DNA from: Verrucomicrobiota bacterium
Lineage (GTDB): Bacteria; Verrucomicrobiota; Verrucomicrobiia; Limisphaerales; UBA11358
DNA length: 64,000 nucleotides
Assembly: GCA_049523555.1 (NCBI GenBank)
Contig: JBEKMU010000010.1
Span: 1,395 to 65,394, forward strand
Reading direction: 5' to 3'
The position numbers were made by a program, and so were the translations under genes. Positions 940 to 55,957 of the stretch are shown here, piece after piece; position 1 is the first letter of the stretch, and each line of letters begins with the position of its first letter. Below the pieces are notes generated by a model. The model was not told where the DNA came from. It worked only from the letters and a program-made list of their open reading frames with translations, and searched no databases.

Positions 940-945
940 CACATA

Positions 946-3870: not shown

Positions 3871-3872
3871 GA

Positions 3873-20769: not shown

Positions 20770-21046
20770 TCAAACCGAAAAGGAGCGCGGAATTTACCAG
20801 ACGCACGAACGAAGTCAATAGGGCATTTCGACTGGTAAGCGAACGATTCGCGCCAAAAAGATTGCTACCCGGGGCTGGGTGATTTATTTGCGTGCGCAAG
20901 CGTTTTTTCTTGAGCAATTGCAAGGGAAACGCTAATTAATCACTAAATTTTTTGACATTGAGCCGTTTTATAAGAGGTTTATGGACATTTTGTTCCTGTC
21001 CAGGGTAAATCAAGGCAAGCATTCAAGCAACCTGCCAAAAGAAAAA

Positions 21047-22102
21047 ATGAGACCAGAACAGTGGGAAACATTCAAGAAAGCCGCGCGGCTGGAAAAATTG
21101 GACAAGGTGGCGATGGCCATGATTGTGGACAGTCCGTGGATACCCGGGTATCTCGGCATCAAGCACATGGATTTTTATCTCGACCCGGAATTGTGGTTTC
21201 AATCACACCTCAAAATCCACCAGGAATTCCCTGACGTCATCTGGGTCCCCTCGTGGTGGATGGAATACGGCATGGCGGCGGAACCGTCGGCGTTGGGGTC
21301 CAAGATCAAATTCTGGGCGGACAACACGCCCAGCGAATACCACACGCTTTTTCACATCGAAGACATCGAAAAATTCCCTGAATACGAAGTGGAGAACGAC
21401 GCTTTCATGGCGCTGACGCTGCATCGCATCCGAATGCAGAAGCAACGCATCCTCGACACCGGAGAAGTTCTGCCGTTCATCACGTCGCGCGGCCCGATGT
21501 GCACGGCGGGTTTTGTGCGCGGCACGACCGAATTGATGATTGATCTCGTGGAAAAACCGGAGTGGTCCCACAAACTGCTCGATCTTTGCACACGGCTGGT
21601 CATTGACTGGCTGAAAGCCCAGCACAAGGCCATCGGCAATACGGTGGAGGGCATTTTTATTTTGGACGACATCGTCGGTTTCGTAAACGAAGAGCATTAC
21701 CAGGAATTCTGCCACCCCTATTTGAAGCGCATCTGCGACGCCTTCCCAAAGGACTGGGTGAAGCTCTATCACAACGATGCGGAAGTACAGGCCTGTCTGG
21801 ACCATTTGCCGGATGCCGGGTTCAACGTGCTGAACTGGGGCAAACAAACGGACATTGCCGAGGTCAAGGAACGCGTGGGTGACCGGATGTGCCTGATGGG
21901 GAATGTGAATCCGCTCGAAGTCGGCGTCCGCGGCACGCCGGAGGAAGTGCGCGAAGCGACGCTGGAAGTTCTCGAAAAGGGCGGCGACCGGGGCATGATT
22001 CTGTCCGTCGGCGGCGGCACCAGTCCCGGCATGCCCAAACAGAACATCCTCGCCATGCTGGAAGCGTTGGCGGAATTCAATTCGAAACGGGTGACTGCTT
22101 AA
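21047..22102 (+). CDS. uroporphyrinogen decarboxylase (URO-D) family methyltransferase, MtaA/MT1-like
   Basis: URO-D-like sequence along its whole length. Sits immediately upstream of the corrinoid protein gene. No clear H-x-C zinc motif (YHNDAE). The ORF is open from 20981. Confidence 0.7.
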   Translation: MRPEQWETFKKAARLEKLDKVAMAMIVDSPWIPGYLGIKHMDFYLDPELWFQSHLKIHQEFPDVIWVPSWWMEYGMAAEPSALGSKIKFWADNTPSEYHTLFHIEDIEKFPEYEVENDAFMALTLHRIRMQKQRILDTGEVLPFITSRGPMCTAGFVRGTTELMIDLVEKPEWSHKLLDLCTRLVIDWLKAQHKAIGNTVEGIFILDDIVGFVNEEHYQEFCHPYLKRICDAFPKDWVKLYHNDAEVQACLDHLPDAGFNVLNWGKQTDIAEVKERVGDRMCLMGNVNPLEVGVRGTPEEVREATLEVLEKGGDRGMILSVGGGTSPGMPKQNILAMLEALAEFNSKRVTA

Positions 22103-22119
22103 GCAAAGGAAAATACCAG

Positions 22120-23106
22120 ATGCCAGACTACGCGTTAATGAATCAGAGCCTTTACGAAGGCAAGGCCAAGGAAGTCGAACAGATGACCCGGGACGCCCTC
22201 GCCGCAGGCCGGAGCGTCAAGGAAGTGCTCACGGAGGGGCTCATCGCGGGCATGAGCGTCGTCGGCGAGGATTTCAAATACAACATCCTCTACGTGCCTG
22301 AAGTGCTGATTGCCGCGCGCGCGATGAAAGCCGGCATGTTGGTTTTGAAGCCATTGCTCAGTGCAAAAGGTTCGGACGTGCAGCCGGCCGGAATTCTCCT
22401 CATGGGAACGGTACGCGGCGACCTGCATGACATCGGCAAAAATCTCGTTTGCATGATGGCCGAGGGCGCGGGCTTTGAAGTCCACGACATCGGCGTGGAC
22501 CAGAGCATTGAAAAATTCCTCGCCGCCACCGAGCAGCACAAGCCGCACATCATCGGCATGAGCGCGTTGCTCACCACGACGATGACTTACATGAAAACAG
22601 TCGTTGACGGCTACAAGGAACGCGGCATGACCAACATCAAGTTCGCCATCGGCGGTGCGCCCATCAGCCAGATGTACGCCGACGAAATCGGCGCGGACGG
22701 CTATGGCGCAGACGCGTCGAGCGCGGTGGATTTGTTTCTCTATTTCGTCGGCAAAGGCGCTGCTCCCAAAGCCAGGACCAAAATGGAAACCATCGCGGCG
22801 GTCATGGCCGAACGGGCGGAACCAACGAAAACGCAACGGGACCCGAACGCCAAATCGAAATTCCAAGTCCTCTACTGGCAGGACATACCGTCGCAGATCA
22901 AGGCGTGGGACGATTTCGACGAAATCAAGCTCGACATGCCGTCGCGTTTTGCCGAGCGGATTGACGCTTCGGCGCAGAAACAGGGTCATATCCAGGCCGA
23001 TGCTTACATGGCACACCTGCGCTGGAGCGACACGGCCGAACGGCCCGGCACGCCCCAGGAAGTCGCCGAAGCCGTGAAGAAAGAGTTGGAAGCAAAATTC
23101 CCGTAA
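22120..23106 (+). CDS. corrinoid (B12-binding) protein with ~110-aa C-terminal extension
   Basis: B12-binding cap helix bundle followed by GTVRGDLHDIGKNLV (DxHxxG) and the Rossmann-like MSALLTTT block. Start chosen at ATG 22120, after the upstream stop. Confidence 0.85.
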   Translation: MPDYALMNQSLYEGKAKEVEQMTRDALAAGRSVKEVLTEGLIAGMSVVGEDFKYNILYVPEVLIAARAMKAGMLVLKPLLSAKGSDVQPAGILLMGTVRGDLHDIGKNLVCMMAEGAGFEVHDIGVDQSIEKFLAATEQHKPHIIGMSALLTTTMTYMKTVVDGYKERGMTNIKFAIGGAPISQMYADEIGADGYGADASSAVDLFLYFVGKGAAPKARTKMETIAAVMAERAEPTKTQRDPNAKSKFQVLYWQDIPSQIKAWDDFDEIKLDMPSRFAERIDASAQKQGHIQADAYMAHLRWSDTAERPGTPQEVAEAVKKELEAKFP

Positions 23107-23164
23107 CGGCGCGGTTGGGTAGAACGCGGTGGATTGGGGAGAGGCAACGAATCAGAAATCTTCT

Positions 23165-23407
23165 TTATGCCTTATTGCAACCGGCAAAGAGTTCTTCCCA
23201 AGAACATCGAAGTGCAGCGCGCAAGCGCACCAGCGTTGGCAGGCTTGGAAAATTTTCGCCAGCTTCCACGTTCTGAATGTAGCGGGCACTCACGCCAACC
23301 TTTTCGGCCAGTCCTTCTTGAGTCAAATCCCGCCGCATCCGCAGTGAGGCAACGTTTTTTCCGAGTCGCTTTCGATATGGACAAGGTTCGGGTTTGCGCA
23401 CAGGCAT
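23165..23407 (-). CDS. XRE-family HTH transcriptional regulator (paralogue 1)
   Basis: LGKNVASLRMRRDLTQEGLAEKVGVSARYIQNVEAGE. Paralogue of 43501..43731. Confidence 0.8.
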   Translation of the reverse strand: MPVRKPEPCPYRKRLGKNVASLRMRRDLTQEGLAEKVGVSARYIQNVEAGENFPSLPTLVRLRAALRCSWEELFAGCNKA

Positions 23408-23565
23408 AACGGAATCCTGTCCAAAAGGCGCGCGGCAAAACACGAGGCTTTACTTCGTGATGTGTTTCGCTATAATATTATGGTGTGGATTAAGCCGGAT
23501 TCAAAAAGGATTGTTGCTGAAACGGAACGGTTCGGTTTGAATCAAGCCGTTCAAGAAGAACAACT

Positions 23566-24780
23566 ATGCAGCCTCAAAACTGTGAGGGCAAAATCGACGG
23601 AAGAAGGCCGCTGATTGCCGCCTGTTGTTGGCTTTGCTCAATTGCTATCTGGAGCAGTTGCACTTATTCAGCGAAGTCGCCCAACACATCCACTCAAGCT
23701 CCAGCTCATTCTCCATTTACTTCGGCGGTGCGGACAAACGCGGCAGTGGTAAGCGCTCCGTTTCGAGCGTGGGTCACGGGAACTTGGGACACGAATTCAT
23801 TTGGCAGCGGCTCACGTTTTGCGAAAGAAGGCGATGCTCGAACGCGGACGTTGGCGCTCGAAAAACTTTTCAGCAAGCGGCACTCAATGTCAGAGGCGGA
23901 GTTGCGAGGTTTCCAACTGATGCTTGAGGAACAGATTCGCGCCACATCCGATGATCCTTACGTCGTAGCCACTTCCGTCCACACACTTGCCGGCCTTCTG
24001 GATTATCTCAAGTCGAGAGGGCTTGTATCCAAAGCAGACATTGCGGCAGACGGCGAATTGCTCGTGTCATACATGAGCGACGACACTCTCGATCTTCAGG
24101 TGAGAGGCGCAGCGATTCGCGCCGTCGGTGATCTTGGAATTACAAATGGCCAGAAACCCATTGAGGAAATGCTCTTTGACGCTGCAAATGTAAATACGCC
24201 GGAGATTGCGCGCAACGGTTGCCTTGCCTTGGTGAAACTTGCGAATGAGGAATCTTTCACGCCAATTCGCGGAGTTTTCGAGACGACATCTGATTCTTCG
24301 GTGTTTGGCACTGCCGCGTTCTGCCTCGGGCAGATTAACAACACTGAGGCCATGTCTGCATTGGCCGAAAATGCGCGGAGATTTCCTGATTCGGAATCGT
24401 GCGACGCAGCGTTGGTGAACATGGACAAGGTAATTTTGGAGACGTTGAATCATCCTGACAGCCCGGTGGTAATTAACGCCATCCAAGCAACCGAACATCT
24501 GTGGAAAGACGGTCAGCGGGAAAAATATGTTCCGGCGTTGCGAGGGCTTCTCGCTGACGGGTCGCTCGCGGTGAAAAGGGCAAGCTGCGAACGGCTCATT
24601 GATGCAGCGAGTCGGTTGCCGTTTGCGCAAGAGAAGCAGGAGTTGGCAGTTGTTTTGGAAAGCATCGGGCAATCGCCAGAGCTACGCGAATACGCTGAGA
24701 AGATTCGGCAGCGGATGGACGCAACTGTCCTCGTTCCGGCCACAGCGTCAGCGCCAGCCCCATCTTCGATAAAACAATAG
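23566..24780 (+). CDS. HEAT/PBS-lyase-like repeat protein with N-terminal signal or lipoprotein-like peptide
   Basis: Hydrophobic N-terminus LIAACCWLCSIAIWSSC. Repeated blocks of the type VRGAAIRAVGDLG and ARNGCLALVKLANEES. Confidence 0.65.
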   Translation: MQPQNCEGKIDGRRPLIAACCWLCSIAIWSSCTYSAKSPNTSTQAPAHSPFTSAVRTNAAVVSAPFRAWVTGTWDTNSFGSGSRFAKEGDARTRTLALEKLFSKRHSMSEAELRGFQLMLEEQIRATSDDPYVVATSVHTLAGLLDYLKSRGLVSKADIAADGELLVSYMSDDTLDLQVRGAAIRAVGDLGITNGQKPIEEMLFDAANVNTPEIARNGCLALVKLANEESFTPIRGVFETTSDSSVFGTAAFCLGQINNTEAMSALAENARRFPDSESCDAALVNMDKVILETLNHPDSPVVINAIQATEHLWKDGQREKYVPALRGLLADGSLAVKRASCERLIDAASRLPFAQEKQELAVVLESIGQSPELREYAEKIRQRMDATVLVPATASAPAPSSIKQ

Positions 24781-24789
24781 AAATAGAGT

Positions 24790-26901
24790 ATGCACACACG
24801 AGCAATGAAGCATCGCTTGGCCTTTCTTAACGTATTGGTTTTGTTCTTTTGTGCGGTCAGTCGTTCTCACGCCCAAATTCCAACGTATGGGAATCTTCAG
24901 GCCCAAGAATATGGTGATGCCGTGTATCGGCAAATAGATAGCTTTTGGCTGAATTTTTTCGGGGCCGACTACAATCATACGGCGGTCTTTGCCGGAATTA
25001 ATTCGAGTCACATCCCGCAGGTAATGGAAGCAACCGGACAGGGGGGAAATACAGCAGGTGATACCACTGCCGAGATCGGTTTTTCGGATATTAATGGCCA
25101 ACCATCGCTGACTTATTTCGGCGCTTATACAAAGACCGATTTGACTTTATCATTTTCTGCACGCAAGAGCGTAGTAGCAACTGCCGTTTCGCTTGTTGAT
25201 GCTTATATCCAATATTATGCATATGACGCCATCGACTATTATTCGGGAGGGAATGATATAAGCCATATCCAATACATTCGTTGTGATGGGCTTGTGGAAT
25301 ACTGCTACAACGCGAATGGGTATGTCGTTTGGTGGCCCACCGCGAATCCGAGCCATTGGAGTATTCTTAGCTATCCCGACGAGCACAATGATGCGCCGAC
25401 TCCTCCAACTGATCCGTCTTATGAGTTTTCACCTTGGGCGCAGCGGGGCGCGCCCGGCGGGTCGTTTTGGGGACCGAGTCCCGGCAACACTTACATGACG
25501 CGGCCTTCCGTCATCAACCTGCCGACCTACCAACTGACGCAGGTGACGAACGCGGGCTACGCAGACGTGACGATTCAAGCCACGGATGAATCGGGCATTC
25601 ACTACATCGGATACAAGAAGCCGGGAGAAACAAATTGGAATTACAGCCCGACACAGGTGCAGCATCCGACAAGTGACACGTATTCTTTCGGCCCGGTGCG
25701 GATCACGAACAGCGGAACGCTCTATATTTTTGCCGTGGACAACGGCGGCAATTATCCAACGCTCGCCACGAGTTACACGATCACTGTGCCGCCGCCTGAC
25801 ACAACAAAGCCAACGGTTTCAATCACCAACCCACCGTCCGCAAAGACTTACACGAATTCACAGACAGTAACCGTTTCAGCGAGCGCCTCGGACAACGTGG
25901 GTGTCGCGAGCGTTGCATTTTATGATGGCTCGACGCTCAAAGGCACTGACCCGACCGCAGCCTACACCTACGATTGGTCATTCGCTGCTGCTGACAACGG
26001 GGCGCATGTGTGGACGGCTCGTGCGTACGATGCTGCCGGAAACGTTTCCACCTCCAGTCCGGTTACGCTCACCGTCAGCATTGACATCACGCCGCCAACG
26101 GTTGTGATTTCCAGCCCAGCCAACGGAGCAAATCTGACAACTTCGACAACGACCGTATCAGGTACGGCCAGTGATCCCGGCTCGCCGAGCAGCGGGCTGA
26201 ATTTGGTGCAAGTTCGAGTCAATGGCGGCGCTTGGCAAACGGCGAGCGGCACGACGAGTTGGAGTCGCAGCGTAACGCTGATGCCGTGCGGAAACACAAT
26301 CGAAGCCCGCAGTCTCGACAAGGCGGGCAACTATTCCACCAACGCTTTAATCTCCGTCACCTACACGCCGCCCAACACCGTGCCGAATACTCCAAGCAAC
26401 ATTTCACCACCCAACGCCGCAACGAAAGTGTCAGTCACCCCCACGTTGCAAGCGAGTGCGTTCAGCGATGTGGACTGCATCGGCGACACGCACGCTGCGA
26501 GCCAGTGGCAAGTGCTGAACAGCACGGGCGCAGTCGTGGTTGCGGACAGTGGCGCGGACACGGTGAACAAGGTCAGCTGGCTAGTGCCCGCTGCAAAATT
26601 GTATTACGGCAGCAACTACCAATGGCGTGTTCGCTACCAAGACAGCCGCAGTGGATGGAGCAGCTACTCTACTCAAACCACATTCACCACTGGCGGCCCA
26701 TTACTCAGCGGAACAAAGCAAGGCACAAACATGGTTTTCAAATGGCCGACCAATGCGCTCAGCTTCTCGCTGCAATGGGTCACGAATCTTTCATCGGCGA
26801 ATTGGAGCAACGCAACGCCTGCACCAGTAATTGTGAGCGGCCAATACACCGTCACAAACAGAATGACCAATAACGCGAGATTCTATCGGTTGAAGAAATA
26901 G
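24790..26901 (+). CDS. secreted multidomain protein: permuted papain-like (YiiX/NlpC-P60 clan) domain + Ig-like/FN3-like domains + FYRL-type C-terminal domain
   Basis: Signal peptide. NHTAVFAG...VMEATGQG...RCDGLVEYCYNANG follows the His-before-Cys permuted pattern. Tandem Ig-like modules (TKPTVSITNP...; ITPPTVVISSP...). C-terminus ends ...ARFYRLKK. Confidence 0.65.
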   Translation: MHTRAMKHRLAFLNVLVLFFCAVSRSHAQIPTYGNLQAQEYGDAVYRQIDSFWLNFFGADYNHTAVFAGINSSHIPQVMEATGQGGNTAGDTTAEIGFSDINGQPSLTYFGAYTKTDLTLSFSARKSVVATAVSLVDAYIQYYAYDAIDYYSGGNDISHIQYIRCDGLVEYCYNANGYVVWWPTANPSHWSILSYPDEHNDAPTPPTDPSYEFSPWAQRGAPGGSFWGPSPGNTYMTRPSVINLPTYQLTQVTNAGYADVTIQATDESGIHYIGYKKPGETNWNYSPTQVQHPTSDTYSFGPVRITNSGTLYIFAVDNGGNYPTLATSYTITVPPPDTTKPTVSITNPPSAKTYTNSQTVTVSASASDNVGVASVAFYDGSTLKGTDPTAAYTYDWSFAAADNGAHVWTARAYDAAGNVSTSSPVTLTVSIDITPPTVVISSPANGANLTTSTTTVSGTASDPGSPSSGLNLVQVRVNGGAWQTASGTTSWSRSVTLMPCGNTIEARSLDKAGNYSTNALISVTYTPPNTVPNTPSNISPPNAATKVSVTPTLQASAFSDVDCIGDTHAASQWQVLNSTGAVVVADSGADTVNKVSWLVPAAKLYYGSNYQWRVRYQDSRSGWSSYSTQTTFTTGGPLLSGTKQGTNMVFKWPTNALSFSLQWVTNLSSANWSNATPAPVIVSGQYTVTNRMTNNARFYRLKK

Positions 26902-27013
26902 CATCGGGACTGCGCTACCTTTATCTGCGCTCTTTGTGCGTTTTGCATTTTCCGCAGCAAAAGAAAACAGAGTTTCCCTGATTTCCCAATTTTGTTATGT
27001 TGCGTCGGCAAAA

Positions 27014-28633
27014 ATGCAGACATTGCGCGAAAAACTATTTCAGTCCTCCCGGTTTCTCATCGGGACTGAATTGGTTTCCACCCGCGGCTCCATGGCGGAG
27101 AAAAGCGCCGTAAAGGTTCGCACGTTCGCCAACCAGCTCGTCGAGTGCCCGTACATTGACTGGATTTCCATCACCGACAATGCCGGCGGTCACCCGCAAC
27201 TCGCACCCACGGCACTGGGCAAACCTCTGCTTTACGCGGGCAAGGAGGTCGTTATTCACCTCACGTGCAAGGACCTGAACCGAAACGGCCTTGAGAGTGA
27301 AGCCTGGCTGCTGAACAGCGAAGGTTTTAACAATGTTCTGGCCATGACCGGCGATTACCCGGTGACCGGGGACATGGGCATGGCCAAGCCGGTTTTCGAC
27401 ATTGATTCCGTCGGCCTGATTTCCATGTTGAACAAGATGAATCAGGGGTTTGATCTCAAAGATGAGCATGGCAACAGCAAAAGCGAGCGGCTCGAAAAAA
27501 CCCAGTTTTGCATCGGCGCCGTCACCACCAATTACAAGCTGCGCGAGGGCGAGGTTGTCCCTCAATACCTGAAGCTGCAAAAGAAAGTCGAGTGCGGCGC
27601 TCACTTCATCATCAATCAAGTCGGCTACGATTCCCGCAAAGCCCACGAACTGCGGCGGTACATGGATGACCACGGGATGAAGGACGTTCCGCTAATTGGG
27701 AATGTCTTTTTGTTGAGCCCAAGGGTCGCGCAAATTTTTTACAGCGGAAGAATTCCGGGTATTGTTGTCACTCCCGCGCTGCTGGAGCTTTGTCTCAAAC
27801 AGGGTCAATCCCCCGACAAGGGGAAGGCTTTCTTCTGCGAATTTGCGGCCAAGCAGATGGCCATCTTCCGCGGCCTGGGCTACCGGGGAGCGTATCTGGG
27901 AGGGGTGCACAATCTCGCGACCATGGAAAAAGTGATGGCGATTGAACGATCGTTCTCGCCGGATGATTGGAAACAATTTGCGCGCGGGATCAAATTCTCC
28001 AGACTTGGCGAATTTTTCCATTACGCCGAAGACCCCGCCTCCGGACTGGCGGCTCCGACCCTGCCAACCCCCGCCGGGACCCCGGTAAAATCAAAACATG
28101 TCGGCGCGCTGTATCAGTTGTCCAAGTGGACCCATGACCTCATGTTTACCCCGGGACGGGTCTTGAGCAACTGGGGGGCGAAAATCTGCCAAAACTCAAA
28201 GGATCCCAGTCAAGGCCCCAAGCCGCTTCGGGCTTTGGAGCATCTCAGCAAGGCCGTTTTGTTCCAATGCAAAGACTGCGGCGATTGTTCGCTGCCGGAC
28301 ATTGCGTTTCTGTGCCCCGAATCTCAATGTGCCAAGAACCAGCGGAATGGTCCCTGTGGCGGCACACGGGAGGGCCACTGCGAAGTGGATGGCTACGGCG
28401 ATTGCATCTGGCTGCGCGCCTATGAACGGTTGAAACACGACGGAAAAGAACAGTCATTGCTCGAGCACGCGCCCGCCGTGCAAAATCAAGCGCTTCGGGG
28501 GACTTCCTCCTGGGCGAACAACTGGCTGGGACGTGATCACGCCGCAAAACGGGTGGACAAGATTTCTTTGAACAAGACCGGTGAACAGAAAACAACCGAC
28601 ACGAAACAGCAAACGCCCGTTTCCACACATTAA
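27014..28633 (+). CDS. metF: methylenetetrahydrofolate reductase fused to a Cys-rich MTHFR C-terminal (MetV-like) domain
   Basis: MetF-like barrel sequence (ISITDNAGG..., HLTCKD). C-terminal CKDCGDCSLPDIAFLCPESQCAKNQRNGPCGG. Start trimmed to the ATG at 27014. Confidence 0.8.
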   Translation: MQTLREKLFQSSRFLIGTELVSTRGSMAEKSAVKVRTFANQLVECPYIDWISITDNAGGHPQLAPTALGKPLLYAGKEVVIHLTCKDLNRNGLESEAWLLNSEGFNNVLAMTGDYPVTGDMGMAKPVFDIDSVGLISMLNKMNQGFDLKDEHGNSKSERLEKTQFCIGAVTTNYKLREGEVVPQYLKLQKKVECGAHFIINQVGYDSRKAHELRRYMDDHGMKDVPLIGNVFLLSPRVAQIFYSGRIPGIVVTPALLELCLKQGQSPDKGKAFFCEFAAKQMAIFRGLGYRGAYLGGVHNLATMEKVMAIERSFSPDDWKQFARGIKFSRLGEFFHYAEDPASGLAAPTLPTPAGTPVKSKHVGALYQLSKWTHDLMFTPGRVLSNWGAKICQNSKDPSQGPKPLRALEHLSKAVLFQCKDCGDCSLPDIAFLCPESQCAKNQRNGPCGGTREGHCEVDGYGDCIWLRAYERLKHDGKEQSLLEHAPAVQNQALRGTSSWANNWLGRDHAAKRVDKISLNKTGEQKTTDTKQQTPVSTH

Positions 28634-28658
28634 AGCCATCGTTATTCGAGAAGATAAA

Positions 28659-29588
28659 ATGAGCGCGAAAAAACTACGGATTATTGGTGATTTGATCAAC
28701 AACGCCTATGGGCGGGCTCGCAACGCCTTCACCGCGCGAAATCTGGAAGGCTATCAAAATCTGGCCAAATCGCAGGCCGAACTGGGCGTGGATTTTCTCG
28801 ACCTCAACATTGATGGCACCCGGCAAATCCAGGTGAAGCTGGAGGAAATGCGGGCCTTCCTGCCCGATGTGATTCCGGCGATTCAAGCGGTAACCCGGGT
28901 TCCGCTGTGCATGGACAATCCGTCGGTGGAATTCCAGAAGGTTGCGCTGAAACATTACGACCGTTCCAAAGGCGGGGCGCCCATCCTGAATTCCATTGCC
29001 GCCTCCCGCGAACATCTCGATGAAATGATCGAACTGGTCGCGGCCTACGACACGCTCGTCATCGTCATGGCTTCTGAAAAATTTGCCGACGGCGGGTCGG
29101 CCCAGTGTCTCAATCCGCAAGACGTGCATGCCACCGCAAAGCATTTTGTCGAGTTGCTGACGACCAAAGCCGGACGGCGCAAGGACCAAATCCTCATTGA
29201 CACGGGACTCGCGCCGGTCGGCGCTGACACTTACGGACTGGTCAACATCGGTCTCGATGCCATGCGGTTGATTCGCCAGGACCCGGACCTGCGTGGTGTT
29301 CATTTCACCTGCGGGCTGTCCAACTTCGCCTGGGGCACTCCCAAGCACATCCGTCATGAACTCGAAAAAGCTTATCTCACCATCGGGATGGAAGCCGGCC
29401 TGGATTTTGCCATAGCCAATCCGGAAAAATCGTCCGGCCCGCTCCCGGCTGATCATCCGTTGGTGGCGCGGCTGCGACAAGCCCTCGCCCAAGGCCGGGC
29501 CGCTGCCGGGGAAAGCCAGGAAACGGCCGGGTTTCGTCAGGCCGAGGCCGTGATGAATATCTGGAGCGATGGACAACCCGCAGATTAA
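28659..29588 (+). CDS. pterin-binding methyltetrahydrofolate:corrinoid methyltransferase (MeTr/AcsE/MtrH-like)
   Basis: LRIIGDLINN....A........Y..LA..Q...G.DFLDLNID is typical of DHPS-like pterin-binding barrels. Confidence 0.75.
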   Translation: MSAKKLRIIGDLINNAYGRARNAFTARNLEGYQNLAKSQAELGVDFLDLNIDGTRQIQVKLEEMRAFLPDVIPAIQAVTRVPLCMDNPSVEFQKVALKHYDRSKGGAPILNSIAASREHLDEMIELVAAYDTLVIVMASEKFADGGSAQCLNPQDVHATAKHFVELLTTKAGRRKDQILIDTGLAPVGADTYGLVNIGLDAMRLIRQDPDLRGVHFTCGLSNFAWGTPKHIRHELEKAYLTIGMEAGLDFAIANPEKSSGPLPADHPLVARLRQALAQGRAAAGESQETAGFRQAEAVMNIWSDGQPAD

Positions 29589-30867
29589 GACGACGATTCC
29601 ATCAGCGGCCAACGGCCGACGCATCTGGCTTCGTGTCGGAATGCTGTTGAATGGAATCAGCACCAGCCCCCTTCGAAACGCCCACGTTGCCTATAACGAA
29701 AAAGAAATTCTCTTCGTCGGCGGGTCTGACGCTTCACCGTCCCCGGATTTCTTGAGTCCCGGGCAACGCCAGCCGGATTTGGATTTGCCGGATTTCACTT
29801 TGCTGCCCGGACTCATCGAAGCACACACGCATTTGTCTCTCGAAGGGGCGGAATTGGATGCTCATCAGCGGGCGGTTCATCTGAAACAAACGCCCGAAGC
29901 TCTTTTGAAAGCGGCGCGGCGGCGGCTGGAAAAATTGGTCCGCATCGGCGTCATCTCCGTCCGCGACGCGGGTGACAAGGACGGCGTCGGCCTGACGCTC
30001 AGCAAACTTTACCAGAGCGAAGGCAGGCCATTGATGCCTTACGTGGACAGCCCCGGCGCCGCGATTCATCACAAGGGGCGTTACGGAAGTCTCATGGCGG
30101 AACCGATCGAGAAATTCGACTCCCTGATGCATTGCGTGGAGGCCCGGGTCAAAGCCGGGGCCGATCGCATCAAGTTGATTGCGACCGGTATCATCAATTT
30201 CAAACAGGGCAGGGTCACCACTGAACCGTAAATGATCGCAGTGGAGGTTTCTGAATTGGTCAGTGCGGCAAAATCATTCGGCAAACAAACCTTCGCACAT
30301 GCTTCCGGCGACACGGGCATCGAACGCGCCATCGAAGGCGGCGTGGATTCCATCGAACACGGCTTCTTTGTTCGCGAGGATCAACTCGCCCGGATGCGCG
30401 ACCGGCAAATTGCCTGGGTGCCAACCTTTGCGCCGGTACAGGCACAGATTGACCATGCCGACCGGTTGGGTTGGGACGACAAAGTGGTATCGAACTTGAA
30501 GAAAATTCTCGACCGACATGCCGCGAGCCTGGTCAAAGCGCATGACATGGGCGTACCAATCATTGCCGGCAGCGACGCCGGTTCGTATGGCGTCGCGCAT
30601 GGAATTGGTTTTTTAAAGGAACTGGAATTGATGGAACGCGCCGGTCTGCCACCGCTGGCCGTGATCAATTCTGCGGCCGGCGCGAGTTCAAATCGTCTCG
30701 CGTTCAGGGAAAAATTCGGTCAAATCAAACCGGGATATCAAAGTCGCTTCATTCTCACGCGTTACTCGCCGCGGGAAAGTGTTTCGAATCTGCAAAAGCA
30801 AAAATTTGTCGTGTTTGACGGCGAGGTTTTTGAGAGCGGCGAGAACGTTGATTTAGAGGGGTTATAA
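29569..30867 (+). pseudogene. amidohydrolase-family enzyme interrupted by an in-frame TAA (30229-30231) followed directly by ATG
   Basis: The N-terminal half carries EAHTHL (HxH). The C-terminal half carries FAHASGD, SIEHG and GSDAG. Both halves share one frame (663 nt apart). Confidence 0.6.
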
Positions 30868-31560: not shown

Positions 31561-33522
31561 TCAGCTTTTTCTGCCGGCTTTGAGCGTTGCGATGATTAGC
31601 TCCGCGTCATAAACGCACCCGGCCCACGTCCCGCCACTGGCCAGTTGCAGGGCGGCCCAGAGCCGCGTGTCCTCCGGTAAGGCGGCGTTCGACGCAAGGT
31701 CCTTCCGCACTCCACGGGCCGCCAGCACCCGCCGGCCTTCTTCCGGCGTGAATTGGCGTTGGCCTTCGCCGACCAGATCAACACTCCCTTCGTTGCGCTT
31801 GCAGTCAATGTGAATGCGGATGACGTCGCCGTCCAAAACCTTGCCGATGGGGCCGCCGGCCAGTCCTTCGGGGCCGATATGCCCGATACATGCACCGGTT
31901 GAAAGCCCCGAAAAACGGGCGTCAGTCAACAAGGCAACCTGTTTGCCAAAAGGCAAATGTTTGAGCGCACCGGTGACCTGATAGGTTTCTTCCATGCCCG
32001 TGCCCATCGGCCCAACGCCGGTCAGCACCAGCACGTCGCCGGCCTTGATACGTCCCTGTTTGATGGCCGCCATTGCGTCCTTCTCGTTCACAAAAACCCG
32101 CGCCGGCCCTTCCTTGCGATAAACGCCGGCCGCGTCCACAACTGACGGATCAATCGCCGTGGCTTTCACCACGGAACCTTCCGGCGCCAGATTGCCACGC
32201 GGGAAAACGAGCGTGCTGGCCAGGCCGCGTTCCCGGGCTTTGTCCGGCGGGAAAATGACTTCGTCGGCATCCACGCCATCCTGCTGCTTCAATAATTCCC
32301 GGAAACGCCAGCGCCGTTCGGATTTTTCCCACCAATCCAGGTTTTCGGCCAAGGTTTTTCCCGTGACGGTGAGCACTTCCCCGTTGAGCAAACCCAGGTA
32401 GCGCAGATGCAGCATCACTTCCGGCACGCCGCCTGCGAGGAATACGCGAACCGTGGGGTGCTGAACCGGACCGTTCGGCAACACGCTGACGAGCCGGGGA
32501 ACACGGCGATTGACGTAAATCCAATCATCCACCGTCGGAAGTTTCAGGCCGGCGGCGTGAGCGATGGCCGGGATGTGCAACAGCAAATTCGTGGAACCAC
32601 CGAAGGCGGCATGAATTACCATTGCATTTTGGATGCTCTCGGAGGTCAGAACATCGCGCATCTTGAACTTGCGTTCATGCAGTTGGTGAAGTGCGCGGGC
32701 CGAACGTCGGGCCATGTCCAGCCACACCGGTTGTCCTGAAGGCGCGAGCGCTGAATGCGGCAACGAAAGTCCGAGCGCCTCGCCGACCACCTGCGCAGTC
32801 GCCGCCGTGCCCAGAAATTGGCAGCCGCCGCCCGGTGAACCGCAGGCGCGGCAGCTCAATTCAGCGGCTTCCGACAACGAAACCAGTCCATGCGCGAAGC
32901 GGGTGCCCAGCGTTTGCACCGTGCCGGCATCTTCAGCCGCGTCAGCCAGCAACGTGACTCCGCCGGGAACAACCACGCAGGGCAGATCAGGCAGACCCGC
33001 GACGGCCATCATCATTGCCGGCAAACCTTTGTCGCAGGTGGCGATGCCGAGCACACCGGCGCGCAGGGGTAGTGAACGGGCCAGACGCCGGAAAATGATG
33101 GCGGCGTCATTTCGATACGGCAGGCTGTCGAACATGCCCGCTGTTCCCTGGGTCCGGCCATCGCAAGGGTCAGAGCAAAAACCGGCGAAAGGAACTGTTT
33201 GCAGCCGGCGAAATTCTTCCGCAGCGGCTTGAACGAGCAATCCGATTTCCCAATGACCGGTGTGATAACCAAGGGCAATCGGTTTGCCGTCGGGAGCGCG
33301 CAATCCACCTTGGGTACTGAGAATCAGGAACTGTTTCCGTCCGGCCTCGGCTGGGTTCCAGCCCATGCCGGCGTTTTGCGTCATTCCAAACAAATCGCCG
33401 CTGGGACTGTTCAGGAGCATTTCTTCGGTAATTGGCAGGCTTCCCGCCGGACCGTGGGCGTGGGTCTGAATCCGGTAGATGTCCGGGATGGCGGAATCGA
33501 ACACATCGTGGCTGGAACTCAT
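31561..33522 (-). CDS. IlvD/Edd-family dehydratase, YjhG/YagF-type D-xylonate dehydratase
   Basis: N-terminus ...[44 protein letters not shown] closely parallels E. coli YjhG. Length is ~653 aa. Confidence 0.85.
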
Positions 33523-33563
33523 GGGAGTTATTGAAGCATGTCTGGAAAAAATGAAAATCAGAA

Positions 33564-34754
33564 TTAAGAATTGACCTCACTCGCCTTGACATCCGCAGTT
33601 TTTGCGGGCGGCCCTTGAAAAGAGTATCCGTGTCCAAGCTCGATCAACCGGCTTTCAAAGAACCTCCAGGATACTGCCGCCGCCACCGCCGTCGCTGCCA
33701 GGGCCAGCAGATTTGCCCCCATGGCCGTCCATCCGATTGCCGGGCAGCCATGCCGTTCCAGCACGGATGCTTTCAGGGCCAGGGCAGGATCCTGGAGCAG
33801 ATACAGTCCATAAGACACCCTCGCGATTGGCTTCAGCACCGGGAGGCTTAGCCACTGGCGAAACCGGCCATGCGCATTCAGCCGCGCCAGCAACAGCGTG
33901 CAGGTGAAAAAAGCCGCAATCCAGGTGTACCCGCCGATGGCAATCAGAGGATGGTATGTATTGAAGCCGGAGAGCATCATCCCGATTATGCCTGCAGCCA
34001 GTGCCAGCCACAGAGCCCGCAGGCGCGCCATCCGCTCTACCAACCATTCCCGGACTTGGGTGACCCGAAGGGCATAGGCGCTCAAAACGCCCATCAGCAA
34101 GGAATCCCACCGGCAGGGCAGCAGCATGTAGCACACGCCGCAGGCCTTCGAACTCTCCGAAAAGACCAGGAACGACGAAGCGCGCAACAAGGGCGCAAGC
34201 ATGATCGCCGCCACCGTGATTTGGACCAGTCGCGGCCCATTCAGCCTGCGCACCAATGGCGGTAACAGCAGGTAAAATTGCTCCTCCACGGCAAGTGACC
34301 AAGTGACCCCCAGATAGCCCGGCACGGTAACGAAAGGCACGATGAAGTTTTGCAGGAAGCAGAGATACACCAGCATCGTCCAACCATTAACCGTGCCCAA
34401 CCCGTGCCCGCTGAAACGCGACTCCAAACCCAATCCCACGACCAACAGAGCCGGCGCCAGCAGAACTGCGTATAGCGGCACGATCCGCAAAAAACGCCGG
34501 AGATAAAAAATGCGGTAATAGTTCGAGGCTTCCCGGTGGTCGAGCAAAATTCCCCCGATGAGGAAACCTGAAATGACAAAAAACAGGTCAACGCCAACCC
34601 ACCCGAAACCCGTCACCGTTTTGATTATTTGAACGGGAATGGCAAACGAAACAAAATGATGCAACAGCACCAGAAGGATGGCGATGGCCCGCAGACCATC
34701 CAAGTCGGACATCCGGTCACCGGCGCTGTTCGATTTCGAGTTCATGCTGGCCAT
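33564..34754 (-). CDS. acyltransferase family 3 (OafA-like) membrane protein
   Basis: [15 protein letters not shown] motif and about 10 hydrophobic helices. Start uncertain (34844, 34754 or 34712). Confidence 0.75.
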
Positions 34755-34883
34755 GCAAAAGGGCGCTTGCTCATGTAAGCACAACGTTTCCCCCTCCAGC
34801 AAGCGCGGGCAAGCCCCGGTCAACGCCGGAATTCGTATCGCCAATCTTCAAAGAGCCTGCTAAAAACCCCGCACTCCGAGCTT

Positions 34884-36158
34884 ATGACACAACAACGTTG
34901 GTTGCGCATCATCCCCGTCGCGTTGCTCATGTACACGATTTCGTACATTGATCGCACCAACGTTTCGCTCGCCCTCGACCCGAAAATTTCTTCGTTGATG
35001 CACGATTTGCTCATGGACGACAAAATGAAAGGCGAGTTGGCGGGAATCTTCTTCATCGGCTATCTTCTGCTGCAGATTCCGGGAGGTTATCTGGCATCGC
35101 GCTGGAGCGCCCGCAAACTCATCAGTTTGTGTCTGATCGCCTGGGGAGCGTGCGCCGTCGGTTGCGGGCTGGCACAAACCTTTAGGCAGTTTGAAGTCAT
35201 GCGTTTTTTCCTGGGCGTGGCGGAAAGCGCCGTGTTTCCGGCCACCCTGGTCCTGCTGGCCAGTTGGTTTCCGCGCGCCGAACGCGCCCGCGCCAACTCT
35301 TACTGGCTTCTGTGCCAGCCGCTCGCCGTCGCCGGCTCCGCGCCCATCACCGGCTGGCTGCTCGGAAAATACGGCTGGCAACAGATGTTGATTCTCGAGG
35401 GAATTTTGCCATTCATCTGGCTGCCCATCTGGTGGTTTTTCATTCGTGACCATCCGCATGAAGCAAAATGGATTTCCGACGAAGAAAAAAATCAGATCGA
35501 AACGATATTGAAAAATGAAGCGAACGAATTGGAGCCGCCGCAAAAGATCTCGTGGGCGAAAAGATTAGCCCATCCATCAATTCTCATCATGGTCGTGCTT
35601 TATTTCCTGCACAACTGTGCGGTTTACGGCTATATGCCTTTTTTTACGAACGGCTTGAAAGACCGTGACTTTAGTCCGTTACAACATGGAATTCTCTTTG
35701 CTATTCCCTATGCTGTTACGGCAATTGTAATGGTTATTAACTCGTGGCATTCAGATAAGACTCACGAGCGGCGTGGCCATGTCGCCGTGGTTTACGCAAT
35801 GAGCGGAGTCAGTCTTATCTTGAGTGTTGTATTGAGCGATCATTTTTGGATTTCCTATGGATTTGCATGTTTGGCGATTCCCGGTCCTTTTGCAGCGATG
35901 GCTCCGTTTTGGGCCATTCCGGGCGAAACCCTGCCGCGCAATGTGATGGGCACTGTCATGGGCGTGGTCAATGCCTTCGGCAATCTCGGTGGATTTGTCG
36001 GACCTCTGATGGTCGGACGGTTGTTGAAAGAATATCATAGCACCGCGATTGCGTTTAATGTTCTCGGCGCGGGAATGCTCGCTTGCGTCGTGCTTGCGTT
36101 TCTGCTGCCGAAAACCGGGCGGCAAATTATCATGACTGGACGCCCGCCAACGGCGTAA
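34884..36158 (+). CDS. MFS transporter (anion:cation symporter / sugar-acid type)
   Basis: 12-helix profile with YIDRTNVSLA and GYLLLQIPGGYLASRW motifs. Confidence 0.8.
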   Translation: MTQQRWLRIIPVALLMYTISYIDRTNVSLALDPKISSLMHDLLMDDKMKGELAGIFFIGYLLLQIPGGYLASRWSARKLISLCLIAWGACAVGCGLAQTFRQFEVMRFFLGVAESAVFPATLVLLASWFPRAERARANSYWLLCQPLAVAGSAPITGWLLGKYGWQQMLILEGILPFIWLPIWWFFIRDHPHEAKWISDEEKNQIETILKNEANELEPPQKISWAKRLAHPSILIMVVLYFLHNCAVYGYMPFFTNGLKDRDFSPLQHGILFAIPYAVTAIVMVINSWHSDKTHERRGHVAVVYAMSGVSLILSVVLSDHFWISYGFACLAIPGPFAAMAPFWAIPGETLPRNVMGTVMGVVNAFGNLGGFVGPLMVGRLLKEYHSTAIAFNVLGAGMLACVVLAFLLPKTGRQIIMTGRPPTA

Positions 36159-36172
36159 GCGGATTGAAAAAC

Positions 36173-37030
36173 ATGAAACTCTGCCGGTTCAAAGACAAGC
36201 AAGGCCAGGTTCTCGTGGCTATGGTCGCGGACGATTCCACGTTGCTCGACCTGACCCCGGCAGGAATCACGCAACTGCATCCGCTGCTGGAGCGTGACAA
36301 TCTGGTTTCCCAACTAGACAAAATCGCGAAACAAAACCTGCCCCGCCTGGCGTTGTCGGAAGTTCAATTGTGCGCGCCGGTGGAGCGGCAGGAAGTCTGG
36401 GCGGCGGGCGTTACCTACCTGCGCAGCAAGACCGCCCGCATGAAGGAATCCGATTTCAGCGCCATTGCTTACGATGAGGTTTATGCGGCAGAACGGCCGG
36501 AACTTTTTTTCAAATCGCTCGCGGAAAAAGTCGTCGCGACCAGCGAACCAGTGGGCATCCGCCGGGATGCGCGCTGGAATGTGCCGGAACCGGAGCTGGC
36601 GCTGGTGTTGAATTCAAAGGGCAAAATCGTCGGCCACACCATTGGCAACGACATGAGTTCGCGTGACATCGAAGGGGAAAATCTGCTCTATCTGCCGCAG
36701 GCGAAAATTTACACCGGCTCCTGCGCTCTCGGCCCGTGGATTGAGGTTGGCACTGATGAAGCAACGGCGCGGGAATGGAAAATCCGGCTGGCCATCCGGC
36801 GAAAGGGCGAAAGCGTCTTTGCGGGCGAAACCTCGGTTGGCCAGATTAAACGCCGTTTCGAGGAACTGGCCGGGTTTCTCTTCCGCAGCCAGGTTTTTCC
36901 CCATGGCGCTGTTTTGCTGACCGGAACCGGCATCGTCCCGCCCGAAACTTTTACGCTGCAGGAGGGGGATGTGGTTGAGATCGAAATCACCGGAATCGGT
37001 TTGCTCAGGAACCCGGTGATGGTAGTTTGA
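36173..37030 (+). CDS. fumarylacetoacetate hydrolase family protein (likely 2-keto-3-deoxy-xylonate dehydratase, XylX-like)
   Basis: FAH-fold sequence. Positioned between the sugar-acid transporter and KGSADH. Confidence 0.75.
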   Translation: MKLCRFKDKQGQVLVAMVADDSTLLDLTPAGITQLHPLLERDNLVSQLDKIAKQNLPRLALSEVQLCAPVERQEVWAAGVTYLRSKTARMKESDFSAIAYDEVYAAERPELFFKSLAEKVVATSEPVGIRRDARWNVPEPELALVLNSKGKIVGHTIGNDMSSRDIEGENLLYLPQAKIYTGSCALGPWIEVGTDEATAREWKIRLAIRRKGESVFAGETSVGQIKRRFEELAGFLFRSQVFPHGAVLLTGTGIVPPETFTLQEGDVVEIEITGIGLLRNPVMVV

Positions 37031-37038
37031 CGGCTGCC

Positions 37039-40025: not shown

Positions 40026-40352
40026 CTAGGCAGTGATAAAAATTTCGCTGTCCGTGATTTGCAATTCAACGCCCGCGGCCTTCGCGGCTTCTTGAAGGGC
40101 GGCATTCAGCATTACCACCGGATCTCTGCTGACGTCGAGCCGGCGCATCAAACCTTCGCCTTTTTTGGTGCCGACGGTGAGCGTCAATTTCAGGCCTTTG
40201 CGTTTGCAACTGACGCGCGTGCCGTCGGGCAGTTTGGTGTTCATCGGTTTGATGAAGGCATCAGTGTAATGCACGCCGATGCCCGATTTATCGGCGGAAC
40301 CAGGCGGAAGTTTTTCCTTGGCCGCCGCATTGATGTCACAAAGCTTTGTCAT
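40026..40352 (-). CDS. hypothetical 108-aa protein, co-oriented with the corrinoid reactivation genes
   Basis: ORF lies 25 nt after the upstream gene and 8 nt before the esterase gene. GGGGAA lies upstream of the ATG. Confidence 0.5.
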   Translation of the reverse strand: MTKLCDINAAAKEKLPPGSADKSGIGVHYTDAFIKPMNTKLPDGTRVSCKRKGLKLTLTVGTKKGEGLMRRLDVSRDPVVMLNAALQEAAKAAGVELQITDSEIFITA

Positions 40353-43334: not shown

Positions 43335-43500
43335 GCGACTGGCTTTGCGCGTATGATTCAAATTAGCATCATAAATGCTTTCTTGAGTTCAGGCAACGAT
43401 GGAGTAAGGCAGGGAAGCCAAGCCTCGACTTGGGCGCAGTGGATTACATTACCAAACTGTTTGACGCGCAGGATTTCGTCTCGCGGATTTGGCTTTCACG

Positions 43501-43781: not shown

Positions 43782-43908
43782 GAAAACGTTTTGGATTCTG
43801 CTTGCCAAAGGCGGCGGGTTTTTGAAGTGTCAGTTCGAGTCTCCTCGGGGTTAAAAATTTTTGGGCAGAACAAGCAATTTGATCCGTATTAACAACGGAA
43901 GGAAACAC

Positions 43909-55949: not shown

Positions 55950-55957
55950 ACACGGCG

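Follow-up and report, generated by a model that had tools for sequence, protein, structure and literature searches.

A 64-kb stretch of the Verrucomicrobiota contig JBEKMU010000010.1 (64,000 nucleotides, hereafter the window) carries, in two separate units, a gene set built around a methyltransferase of the URO-D superfamily and an adjacent corrinoid protein. We propose that this gene set represents a modular corrinoid methyl hub with a zinc-less URO-D protein as its donor module. The hub would carry an O-methyl group, whose likeliest source is 4-O-methyl-glucuronate, to tetrahydrofolate (THF) and/or homocysteine. We give this reading a probability of roughly 0.5. In a more specific form, which we put forward more tentatively and at somewhat less than even odds, the URO-D protein could be the first corrinoid-dependent carbohydrate O-demethylase (a 4-O-methyl-D-glucuronate:corrinoid methyltransferase), feeding its methyl group into methionine and the folate one-carbon pool, and serving also as a folate-optional methionine synthase.

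A recurrent gene set in two units

Window proteins were taken from a list of open reading frames (ORFs) and scanned against Pfam and NCBIfam profiles. The system, together with the insertion that divides its first unit, consists of the following features:

21047-22102, plus strand: URO-D-superfamily methyltransferase, proposed methyltransferase I (MT I); PF01208, E 2e-43
22120-22770, plus strand: corrinoid protein, B12 cap and Rossmann B12-binding domain, forming the N-terminal part of the 22120-23106 gene; PF02607, PF02310
22861-23106, plus strand: PF13769 'Virulence_fact' domain, C-terminus of the corrinoid protein; E 8e-16
23134-26936: insertion of three genes that splits the operon, outside the system
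27014-28633, plus strand: MetF-MetV-type methylene-THF reductase (MTHFR); PF02219 and PF12225 (MTHFR_C/DUF5981)
28659-29588, plus strand: pterin-binding methyl-THF:corrinoid methyltransferase (MT II); PF00809; NF005719, 116 bits
29569-30867, plus strand: amidohydrolase (COG1228/prolidase-like); PF01979; in-frame TAA at 30229-30231
40026-40352, minus strand: conserved 108-aa protein, defined by alignment; no Pfam family
40378-41664, minus strand: 428-aa protein with the predicted fold of the MetH activation domain
41682-43361, minus strand: RACo-type ATP-dependent reductive activase; PF14574 (E 2e-72), PF17651, PF00111

A preliminary description of the window, made from its letters, had placed the URO-D, corrinoid, MTHFR and pterin methyltransferase genes at these positions, and the Pfam and NCBIfam scans bear out their domains. 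The architecture that it proposed, comprising MT I, corrinoid protein, MT II, MTHFR and activase, holds, with the RACo activase encoded within the window itself. Absent from that account were the amidohydrolase, the operon of RACo, the activation-like protein and the 108-aa protein, and the homocysteine S-methyltransferase of relatives. The RACo unit lies on the minus strand (43361-40026), 11 kb downstream of the main gene set.

Eighty genome loci were retrieved via the URO-D protein from Verrucomicrobiota, Bacteroidota, Ignavibacteria and other metagenome-assembled genomes (MAGs), and their ORFs were clustered de novo and annotated with Pfam. Two units recur among them. One comprises URO-D, the corrinoid protein, PF13769 (fused or separate), a PF02574 homocysteine S-methyltransferase, MTHFR/DUF5981, the pterin methyltransferase and the amidohydrolase; the other comprises RACo, a protein of about 430 aa without a family, and the 108-aa protein. 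The homocysteine enzyme is paired with the corrinoid protein in 31 of the 80 loci and also in Opitutus terrae. No PF02574 homocysteine methyltransferase is encoded in the 64-kb window and, since it neighbours the corrinoid gene in these relatives, that of the window organism may lie elsewhere in its genome.

The full set, including the homocysteine enzyme, recurs in Bacteroidota and Ignavibacteria-type MAGs (loci L056, L060, L068, L071 and L084), and the set minus this one gene is found in candidate division KSB1 (L081) and in Opitutaceae (L095). The cultured anaerobe O. terrae PB90-1 (L178; URO-D protein ACB77610.1/WP_012377136.1) carries everything in one co-directional cluster with gaps of at most 170 bp, in the order GH115, LacI, UxuA, RACo, activation-like protein (453 aa), 108-aa protein, URO-D, corrinoid protein with PF13769, GH51, MTHFR, pterin methyltransferase, amidohydrolase, homocysteine methyltransferase and SDR. 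The KSB1 genes also form a single operon (RACo, a 421-aa protein, a 114-aa protein, URO-D, corrinoid protein, PF13769, MTHFR, pterin methyltransferase, amidohydrolase and UxuA). A compact operon at L115-L117 runs URO-D, corrinoid protein, PF13769, RACo, activation-like protein, homocysteine methyltransferase and 108-aa protein, without pterin methyltransferase or MTHFR. With homocysteine, folate, cap/cobalamin and activation modules all present, the system therefore holds every module of MetH as a separate part, the donor module aside, plus RACo.

The URO-D and corrinoid genes are neighbours in essentially all 80 genome loci. As a reciprocal check, metagenome contigs were scanned from the corrinoid side. 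Among corrinoid orthologues of at least 75% identity with enough upstream flank, a URO-D gene (product 69-92% identical) lies directly upstream in about 21 of 22, while corrinoid proteins at about 50-58% identity are members of other systems. The pairing of the two proteins is near-obligate, effectively obligate.

Some loci carry further genes of potential relevance. On contig Ga0335077_10004482, a 345-aa 'core' MetE-like protein (L115:879-1916, minus strand; Meth_synt_2 only, E 3e-14) is encoded 4 kb upstream of the compact operon, and may be a folate-independent methionine synthase using the same methyl-corrinoid protein. Directly downstream of the Opitutaceae cluster (L095/L096:13946-17056) are CobA/CobO, of the cob(I)alamin adenosyltransferase family, and a BtuCDF-like ABC importer, as would fit a local supply of the corrinoid cofactor.

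The URO-D protein and its partners

The best-scoring curated model for the URO-D protein is TIGR01463 (MtaA/CmuA), at 108.5 bits against a cut-off of 235.4. Because this score is far below the cut-off, we assign the protein to no curated family. Identity as HemE (TIGR01464) was rejected at 71.6 bits against a cut-off of 302.95, in a gene context of corrinoid methyl transfer and not haem synthesis. An MtaA-type coenzyme M methyltransferase was also rejected, given the absent zinc site, scores under the cut-offs and the presence of a pterin methyltransferase. AF2 models of this protein and of the 428-aa protein were built from proteins retrieved by homology search. The URO-D model is a UroD barrel (pLDDT 83) that Foldseek aligns with human UROD and M. 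mazei MtaA at TM 0.77-0.78. In a comparison with PDB sequences, in which CdmB and MtaA represented the corrinoid-linked methyltransferases, the protein matches CdmB (E 1.5e-9, partial) and MtaA (E 3.4e-7) no better than HemE.

The preliminary description had found no obvious H-x-C zinc-thiolate motif. We aligned the family profile to an MtaA-like paralogue encoded at locus L057 (H-T-C ... C), whose zinc ligands are inferred from the MtaA family. The family has H-N-D at the position of H-T-C and Gly at the second Cys, and H242-N243-D244 is invariant within it. The family therefore lacks the zinc-thiolate site that thiol-methylating URO-D enzymes have. Loss of these ligands fits a donor-side MT I, like CdmB, a zinc-free MT I, and the O-demethylases of the UroD superfamily, which likewise work without catalytic zinc (PMC13222342). 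Transfer would presumably run from donor to corrinoid protein.

Verrucomicrobiota, Bacteroidota, candidate division KSB1, Ignavibacteria-type MAGs and unassigned metagenome contigs all carry URO-D proteins that are 76-96% identical, and metagenomes contain thousands of homologues of at least 80% identity. In a library clustered at 50% identity, the family is essentially one full-length cluster, whose next relatives are at most 42% identical and without names. Identities of 80-96% across phyla point to horizontal spread plus unusually strong constraint. A distant URO-D paralogue of 431 aa, the one used for the zinc-site alignment, is encoded in a Chitinophagaceae MAG (L057:18296-19591, minus strand) beside a sodium:solute symporter, just past the RACo gene. 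It keeps the H-T-C...C zinc motif and scores highest on MtaA/CmuA, which suggests that some hosts plug further methyltransferases into the same corrinoid hub.

The corrinoid protein displays the motifs DLHDIG (DxHxxG), SALL and GG. Its closest NCBIfam models, MtgC and pyl_corrinoid, both outscore MetH, and its top PDB match is 1y80 (E 1e-56). The DxHxxG motif had been recognised previously, as had the C-terminal extension of about 110 aa, which proves to be a PF13769 domain. This domain is fused to the corrinoid protein in the window and in Opitutaceae, and is a separate gene of 84-85 aa in KSB1, Bacteroidota and other loci.

Further along the same unit, the MTHFR is of the MetVF type, combining in one polypeptide a catalytic domain and a Cys-rich MetV/MTHFR_C module (PF12225, the Cys-rich C-terminal domain of the preliminary description). 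Its adjacency to the pterin methyltransferase is kept in relatives, where the latter is about 70% identical. The best NCBIfam model of the pterin enzyme is the methyl-THF:corrinoid/iron-sulfur protein methyltransferase NF005719, which scores above MetH, and the enzyme is probably bidirectional.

The corrinoid and MTHFR genes of the window are separated by an island of 3.8 kb. In at least 15 related loci MTHFR directly follows the corrinoid gene, and homologues of the island genes (HTH_3, HEAT and Ig-domain) occur in none of the 80 related loci. The island is therefore a window-specific insertion, in agreement with the original interpretation. No flanking repeats were found as a mobile-element signature of this insertion, and promoter and terminator scans gave scores at background level.

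The amidohydrolase gene is the last of the MTHFR, pterin methyltransferase and amidohydrolase sub-operon, directly after the pterin gene. The nearest solved relatives of its product are Xaa-Pro dipeptidase, the Arg carboxypeptidase Cc2672 and ochratoxinase. A TAA at 30229-30231, with an ATG immediately next to it, cuts the gene into ORFs of 220 aa and 211 aa; homologues read '...TTEPQM...' at this position, i.e. Gln (CAA-type). The gene could be a pseudogene, contain a sequencing error, or encode a two-piece protein by translational coupling. Because the operon is split, the amidohydrolase interrupted and the homocysteine methyltransferase absent, the window copy of the system may be partly degenerate or rearranged. 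Its closest relatives (L002, L003 and L077) are also rearranged.

The second unit supplies putative reactivation functions. RACo comprises a 2Fe-2S ferredoxin domain, a RACo middle domain and an ASKHA domain, and lies within 10 kb of URO-D in 39 of the 80 loci. The 428-aa protein matches nothing in Pfam, NCBIfam or a PDB profile search, and its homologues are all annotated 'hypothetical'. The top Foldseek match of its AF2 model (pLDDT 74) is 1j6r_A, the activation domain of T. maritima TM0269 (E 2.6e-9; TM 0.82, normalised to target), and the next are the MetH reactivation domains of Thermus, E. coli and human. The N-terminal half is thus, as modelled, a MetH activation (AdoMet-binding) domain fold, and the C-terminal half is Cys-rich, with invariant Cys residues. 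Membership of Pfam Met_synt_B12 or DUF1638 was rejected, a sequence match being absent; it is only the predicted fold that ties the protein to the MetH activation domain. Of the pairing of a RamA-like protein with DUF1638 known to effect reactivation, the RACo/RamA-like member is present, DUF1638 was not seen, and the MetH-activation-fold protein is found instead. In the single metagenomic population behind L089-L094, the activation-like protein is shortened to 267 aa and lacks the Cys-rich C-terminal half.

The 108-aa protein, with a mean column identity of 84%, is present in 32 of the 80 loci, invariably after the activation-like gene; it belongs to no Pfam family and has no significant PDB match. 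The acetylxylan esterase gene AXE1 is co-directional with this operon and directly downstream of it in the window, and likewise follows it in L002, L003, L077 and L099.

Proposed methyl donor, methyl sinks and competing explanations

In the mechanism that we envisage, the URO-D protein, as MT I, would demethylate an O-methylated compound of plant cell walls and load the methyl group onto Co(I) of the corrinoid protein encoded next to it. As donor, the likeliest candidate is 4-O-methyl-D-glucuronate, or an aldouronate bearing it, freed from glucuronoxylan by GH67/GH115 and CE15 enzymes. Methyl-Co(III) could then be unloaded along two routes. In one, the pterin-binding methyltransferase would pass the methyl group to THF, the MetF-MetV-type MTHFR would oxidise methyl-THF, and PurU and NAD-dependent formate dehydrogenase can carry the carbon onward to formate and CO2. 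In the other, a homocysteine S-methyltransferase, present in relatives and presumably encoded elsewhere in this genome, would produce methionine; the pterin enzyme operating in reverse together with the homocysteine enzyme would amount to a split MetH. Repair of Co(II) would fall to the RACo activase and the protein with the predicted fold of the MetH AdoMet activation domain, and the demethylated product, glucuronate, would enter the UxuA pathway.

The carbohydrate context of the system extends well beyond the window. Neighbours up to about 10 kb away were counted in 114 loci whose URO-D orthologue reaches at least 65% identity, or 115 after adding O. terrae. CE15 glucuronoyl esterase occurs near URO-D in 20 of the 114 loci, UxuA in 18, an adjoining PurU in 13, a GH28-like gene directly upstream in 12 and GH67 in 2; with O. 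terrae included, a LacI-type regulator is found in 11 of 115 and GH115 in 8. GH115, CE15 and UxuA carry most of the neighbourhood association, while direct linkage to GH67 is weak. For example, the genes GH43-CBM6, BD-FAE esterase, CE15 and PurU precede URO-D in an Ignavibacteriaceae MAG (L042), and GH10 xylanases, GH3, a GPH transporter and GH51 are found around or inside the cluster in Bacteroidota (L064, L057 and L063). In L115 the gene immediately after the compact operon is GH67, which in L034 is 5.9 kb away from URO-D; sugar-acid genes of the DHDPS-family, MFS transporter and enolase-superfamily (MR_MLE_C domain) types stand beside the compact operon in L116; and about nine Verrucomicrobiota loci have dehydratase, MFS and FAH genes in the vicinity of URO-D.

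We rank 4-O-methyl-glucuronate as the likeliest donor because it is the sole methylated constituent of glucuronoxylan, and because the neighbours either release it (GH115, GH67 and CE15) or serve to break down the product of its demethylation (UxuA, SDR, sugar-acid dehydratases and LacI regulators). Glucuronoxylan ranks with the most abundant land polymers, and the majority of its glucuronate side chains are 4-O-methylated. By our reasoning, the standard pathway requires that the 4-hydroxyl be free ahead of the 2-keto-3-deoxy-gluconate aldolase step. The link to xylan side chains suggested in the preliminary description thus gains comparative support, although the identity of the substrate, most likely 4-O-methyl-glucuronate, is still read from gene neighbourhoods only. 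The route that it proposed, from methyl group through THF to CO2, agrees with the pterin enzyme, MTHFR and PurU, but is not the sole one. Because the homocysteine methyltransferase is paired with the corrinoid protein, in compact operons among others, and because the accessory protein has a MetH-activation fold, methionine synthesis is a second sink, and in some lineages the main one.

Several considerations weigh against this proposal. On sequence, 4-O-methyl-glucuronate is not separable from methoxylated aromatics, methyl esters or methanol. The substrate is assigned through guilt by association in genomes rich in carbohydrate-active enzymes, and many of the loci share ancestry. Only about 10 of 115 loci have GH67 or GH115 at a distance of 10 kb or less, and the window GH67 is 27 kb away. 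A histidine biosynthesis operon directly precedes the cluster in L089-L094, an anabolic context unlike the xylan association; in L084 the neighbours are those of an arabinose operon, and in L086 and L087 they are unrelated. Cleavage of a secondary alkyl methyl ether by Co(I) is harder than that of an aryl ether, and would need strong leaving-group activation. Cross-phylum identities of 80-96% in URO-D are unusual for a catabolic specificity module. The compact operons of L115-L117 could be read as a complete methionine synthase, with URO-D replacing the folate module. Finally, the amidohydrolase, the PF13769 domain and the 108-aa protein are without a role in the model, and the window itself has no homocysteine methyltransferase and an amidohydrolase bearing a stop codon.

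The same hub might draw on a different donor. Methoxylated aromatics from lignin-carbohydrate complexes or feruloylated xylan (ferulate, vanillate, syringate and lignin alcohols) come to mind, given that aryl methyl ethers are the substrates of every characterised UroD-superfamily MT I that cleaves ethers, namely OdmB, VdmB, MtvB and MtoB (PMC13222342; PMC10418091). Such ethers are chemically easier to cleave, and CE15 and BD-FAE/feruloyl-type esterases, which release aromatic moieties, are among the neighbours. We nevertheless regard aromatic donors as quite unlikely. UxuA, LacI-type regulators, GH115/GH67, enolase-superfamily and DHDPS-family proteins and sugar transporters all indicate a sugar-acid product, and ring-cleavage or phenolic-acid genes were not seen in the annotated flanks. 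Further, O-demethylase MT I proteins form diversified paralogue families, whereas here there is a single orthogroup of about 80-96% identity with only remote, partial similarity to CdmB (E 1.5e-9). It is decidedly unlikely that the donor is methanol or a uronate methyl ester, such as those of pectin or glucuronoyl groups, with the methyl group captured instead of being lost as methanol. In an SN2 attack by Co(I), a carboxylate would leave readily, CE15 is a frequent neighbour, the GH28-like genes of 12 loci stand directly upstream of URO-D, and methanol is described as abundant at sites of plant cell-wall degradation (PMC13391211). Yet no association with pectin methylesterase was seen among the neighbours, the recurrent neighbour is UxuA of the glucuronate branch and not the altronate-pathway genes, and natural glucuronate methyl esters are not established. 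Moreover, the known methanol:corrinoid methyltransferases belong to the zinc-dependent MtaB family, not to URO-D.

Other explanations would change the role of the URO-D protein itself. It could be the endogenous-donor module, either a methyl-THF binder that stands in, without homology, for the folate domain or a binder of another cellular methyl carrier, in a housekeeping split methionine synthase whose polysaccharide context is incidental. The remaining MetH modules would then be the corrinoid protein, the homocysteine methyltransferase, the activation-like protein and RACo. Operons of URO-D, corrinoid protein, PF13769, RACo, activation-like protein, homocysteine methyltransferase and 108-aa protein (L115-L117, L089-L094 and L087) hold all MetH modules but the pterin domain, and the 428-aa protein has the predicted fold of the MetH activation domain. 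The very high conservation of URO-D is housekeeping-like, and its barrel is of the same structural class as that of MetE, to which Foldseek also matches it. We consider this explanation unlikely, however. In many loci a pterin methyl-THF methyltransferase is encoded in the same operon, so that a second methyl-THF-binding module would be redundant, and PurU and the MetF2-like MTHFR indicate methyl oxidation. A homocysteine methyltransferase is absent within the examined sequence of KSB1 L081, of Opitutaceae L095/L096 and of the window, although O. terrae has one. It is also hard to explain why a biosynthetic enzyme should recur in xylan/uronate loci of several phyla under LacI-type regulators. 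Those same regulators, with the carbohydrate context, are unlike a halomethane system, and we think it very unlikely that the protein dehalogenates chloromethane as CmuA or CdmB do, or that it acts on the acceptor side, passing the methyl group of methyl-corrinoid (from methyl-THF) to a non-thiol acceptor. Here, the best curated-family similarity is indeed to MtaA/CmuA, a pterin methyltransferase, MetF2 and PurU also form the downstream part of the Cmu pathway, and peat and soil are chloromethane sources. Against this, the scores fall far under the MtaA/CmuA cut-off, the zinc site required for thiol acceptors is missing, and CmuA fuses the methyltransferase and corrinoid domains that are separate proteins here.

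A corrinoid hub loaded by URO-D also finds parallels among characterised systems, of which MtgBCDE is the closest in its logic. In Ruegeria and Phaeobacter, one corrinoid protein and a bidirectional pterin methyltransferase are common to glycine-betaine demethylation and a split MetH, MetF2, encoded beside the pterin gene, oxidises methyl-THF, and the activase is RamA-like (PMC12478193; PMC5764234). As in Ruegeria pomeroyi and Phaeobacter inhibens, a donor-specific methyltransferase would load a stand-alone corrinoid protein that is used by a stand-alone pterin methyltransferase and, in the relatives studied here, by a stand-alone PF02574 homocysteine methyltransferase. Both systems also have an MTHFR gene beside the pterin gene (a second MTHFR in MtgBCDE), a RamA/RACo-type activase, and non-acetogenic, non-methanogenic heterotrophs as hosts. 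They differ in the donor module, which is URO-D here and of the MttB family (PF06253) there, and in the accessory protein, which combines a predicted MetH-activation fold with a Cys-rich half here and is DUF1638 there. The MTHFR described here is a MetF-MetV fusion; PF13769, the 108-aa protein and the amidohydrolase are extra; and the context is that of xylan and uronate, as opposed to osmolyte catabolism.

The aryl O-demethylases (OdmABCD/Vdm/MtvABC/MtoABCD) and CdmBCA likewise comprise a zinc-less UroD MT I, a corrinoid protein, a pterin MT II and an ATP-dependent activase that deliver the methyl group to THF (PMC13222342). Unlike them, the present family is a single conserved orthogroup and not a swarm of paralogues, and CdmB, the one solved member, is only remotely similar to it. 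Its hosts include Verrucomicrobiota, Bacteroidota, Ignavibacteria-type MAGs and KSB1, where those of the known systems are acetogens or methanogens. It is also linked with homocysteine methylation and a MetH-type activation domain, and its neighbours are carbohydrate-active enzymes. The Cmu chloromethane pathway of Methylobacterium and Hyphomicrobium (CmuA, CmuB, MetF2, FolD and PurU) is aerobic. It resembles the system described here in its URO-D-type methyltransferase, corrinoid, pterin methyltransferase, dedicated MTHFR and PurU/formate oxidation; here, however, the genes are separate where CmuA is fused, DxHxxG is kept, the TIGR01463 cut-off is not reached and there is no halomethane context. 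In type 1 mlp clusters, two or three Mlp paralogues (MtaA-like URO-D proteins, with Mlp2 and Mlp3 as the minimum) accompany a corrinoid protein and a RACE/Ram activase, and a THF methyltransferase is lacking. These clusters are known from obligate anaerobes, mostly Firmicutes, and were proposed to serve methyl-sulfur or methyl-selenide metabolism (PMC10418091). The likeness lies in a bacterial URO-D, corrinoid protein and activase, to which the present system adds a pterin methyltransferase, MTHFR and homocysteine methyltransferase. Assignment to the type 1 mlp clusters was rejected given a single zinc-less URO-D gene, the presence of a pterin methyltransferase and scores under the cut-offs.

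Demethylation of sugars has a precedent of a different kind. A cytochrome P450 reportedly demethylates 6-O-methyl-D-galactose during porphyran degradation (Reisky et al. 2018, cited in PMC13425298), and this is, to our knowledge, the sole sugar O-demethylation within a polysaccharide utilisation locus. The P450 route is oxidative, O2-dependent and releases formaldehyde, whereas the system described here would be a non-oxidative, B12-based methyl transfer that conserves the methyl group. Our literature searches (methylated sugars, PF13769, xylan/URO-D, Opitutus/GH115 and 4-O-methyl-glucuronate demethylation) returned no description of this cluster, of PF13769 in such a role or of a 4-O-methyl-glucuronate demethylase, in keeping with the earlier statement that none is established; matches on 4-O-methyl-glucuronate concerned glucuronoyl-esterase assays and GH115 enzymology. 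The donor module, the accessory parts and the host range are new, and the substrate class is probably new as well.

If our proposal is true, it would fill a gap in hemicellulose catabolism. The fate of 4-O-methyl-glucuronate would be B12-dependent and non-oxidative, tying xylan turnover in soils and sediments to the supply of cobalamin, and non-methylotrophs would have an extra methyl source for methionine. Corrinoid O-demethylation would extend from the aryl ethers of strict anaerobes to sugar ethers in widespread polysaccharide degraders. Whatever the donor, this is a large uncharacterised gene set that crosses phyla and accounts for thousands of metagenome proteins, and it includes three components without assigned function: the PF13769 domain, the 108-aa protein and the 428-aa activation-like protein. 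Opitutus terrae PB90-1, a cultured host that carries the cluster, is open to direct testing.

Neighbouring genes and other features of the window

The context genes named in the preliminary description (GH67, acetylxylan esterase, xylonate catabolism and NAD-formate dehydrogenase) were all verified by domain or NCBIfam scores. They are listed here with the genes of the insertion:

23165-23443, minus strand: HTH_3 regulator in the insertion (Pfam)
23566-24780, plus strand: HEAT-repeat protein in the insertion (Pfam)
24790-26901, plus strand: 703-aa Ig-domain protein in the insertion (Pfam)
31561-38652: pentonate (Weimberg-like) catabolic genes, between the two halves of the system
31561-33522, minus strand: YjhG/YagF D-xylonate dehydratase; 1133 bits against a cut-off of 808
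38698-40017, minus strand: acetylxylan esterase AXE1; PF05448, E 6e-34
49720-52269, plus strand: GH67 alpha-glucuronidase, acting on aldouronates to free 4-O-methyl-glucuronate; GH67 N, M and C domains, E 7e-149
52416-53621, plus strand: NAD-dependent formate dehydrogenase; NF005750, 721 bits against a cut-off of 329

The pentonate block also contains genes for an acyltransferase, an MFS transporter, a FAH-family protein and an aldehyde dehydrogenase. GH67 and the formate dehydrogenase gene that follows it are on the same strand, 147 bp apart. Such a pairing is unusual; oxidation of the 4-O-methyl-glucuronate methyl group to formate would give it a rationale.

Between the RACo operon and GH67 (43861-49139), the window encodes a 1413-aa protein with a weak match to the DUF900 alpha/beta-hydrolase family, followed by a 346-aa CarboxypepD_reg-like protein; neither has homologues among the 80 related loci. 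At the start of the window (10-4688), two genes of the RlaP family (RNA-repair-pathway DNA polymerase beta family) lie either side of one for a 974-aa protein without a Pfam family. Towards its other end (region 55039-61654), a weak DDE transposase-like ORF (55039-55824) adjoins a minus-strand block that encodes two proteins without a Pfam family, a ResB-like protein and a NapC/NirT-type multihaem cytochrome (60167-61654).

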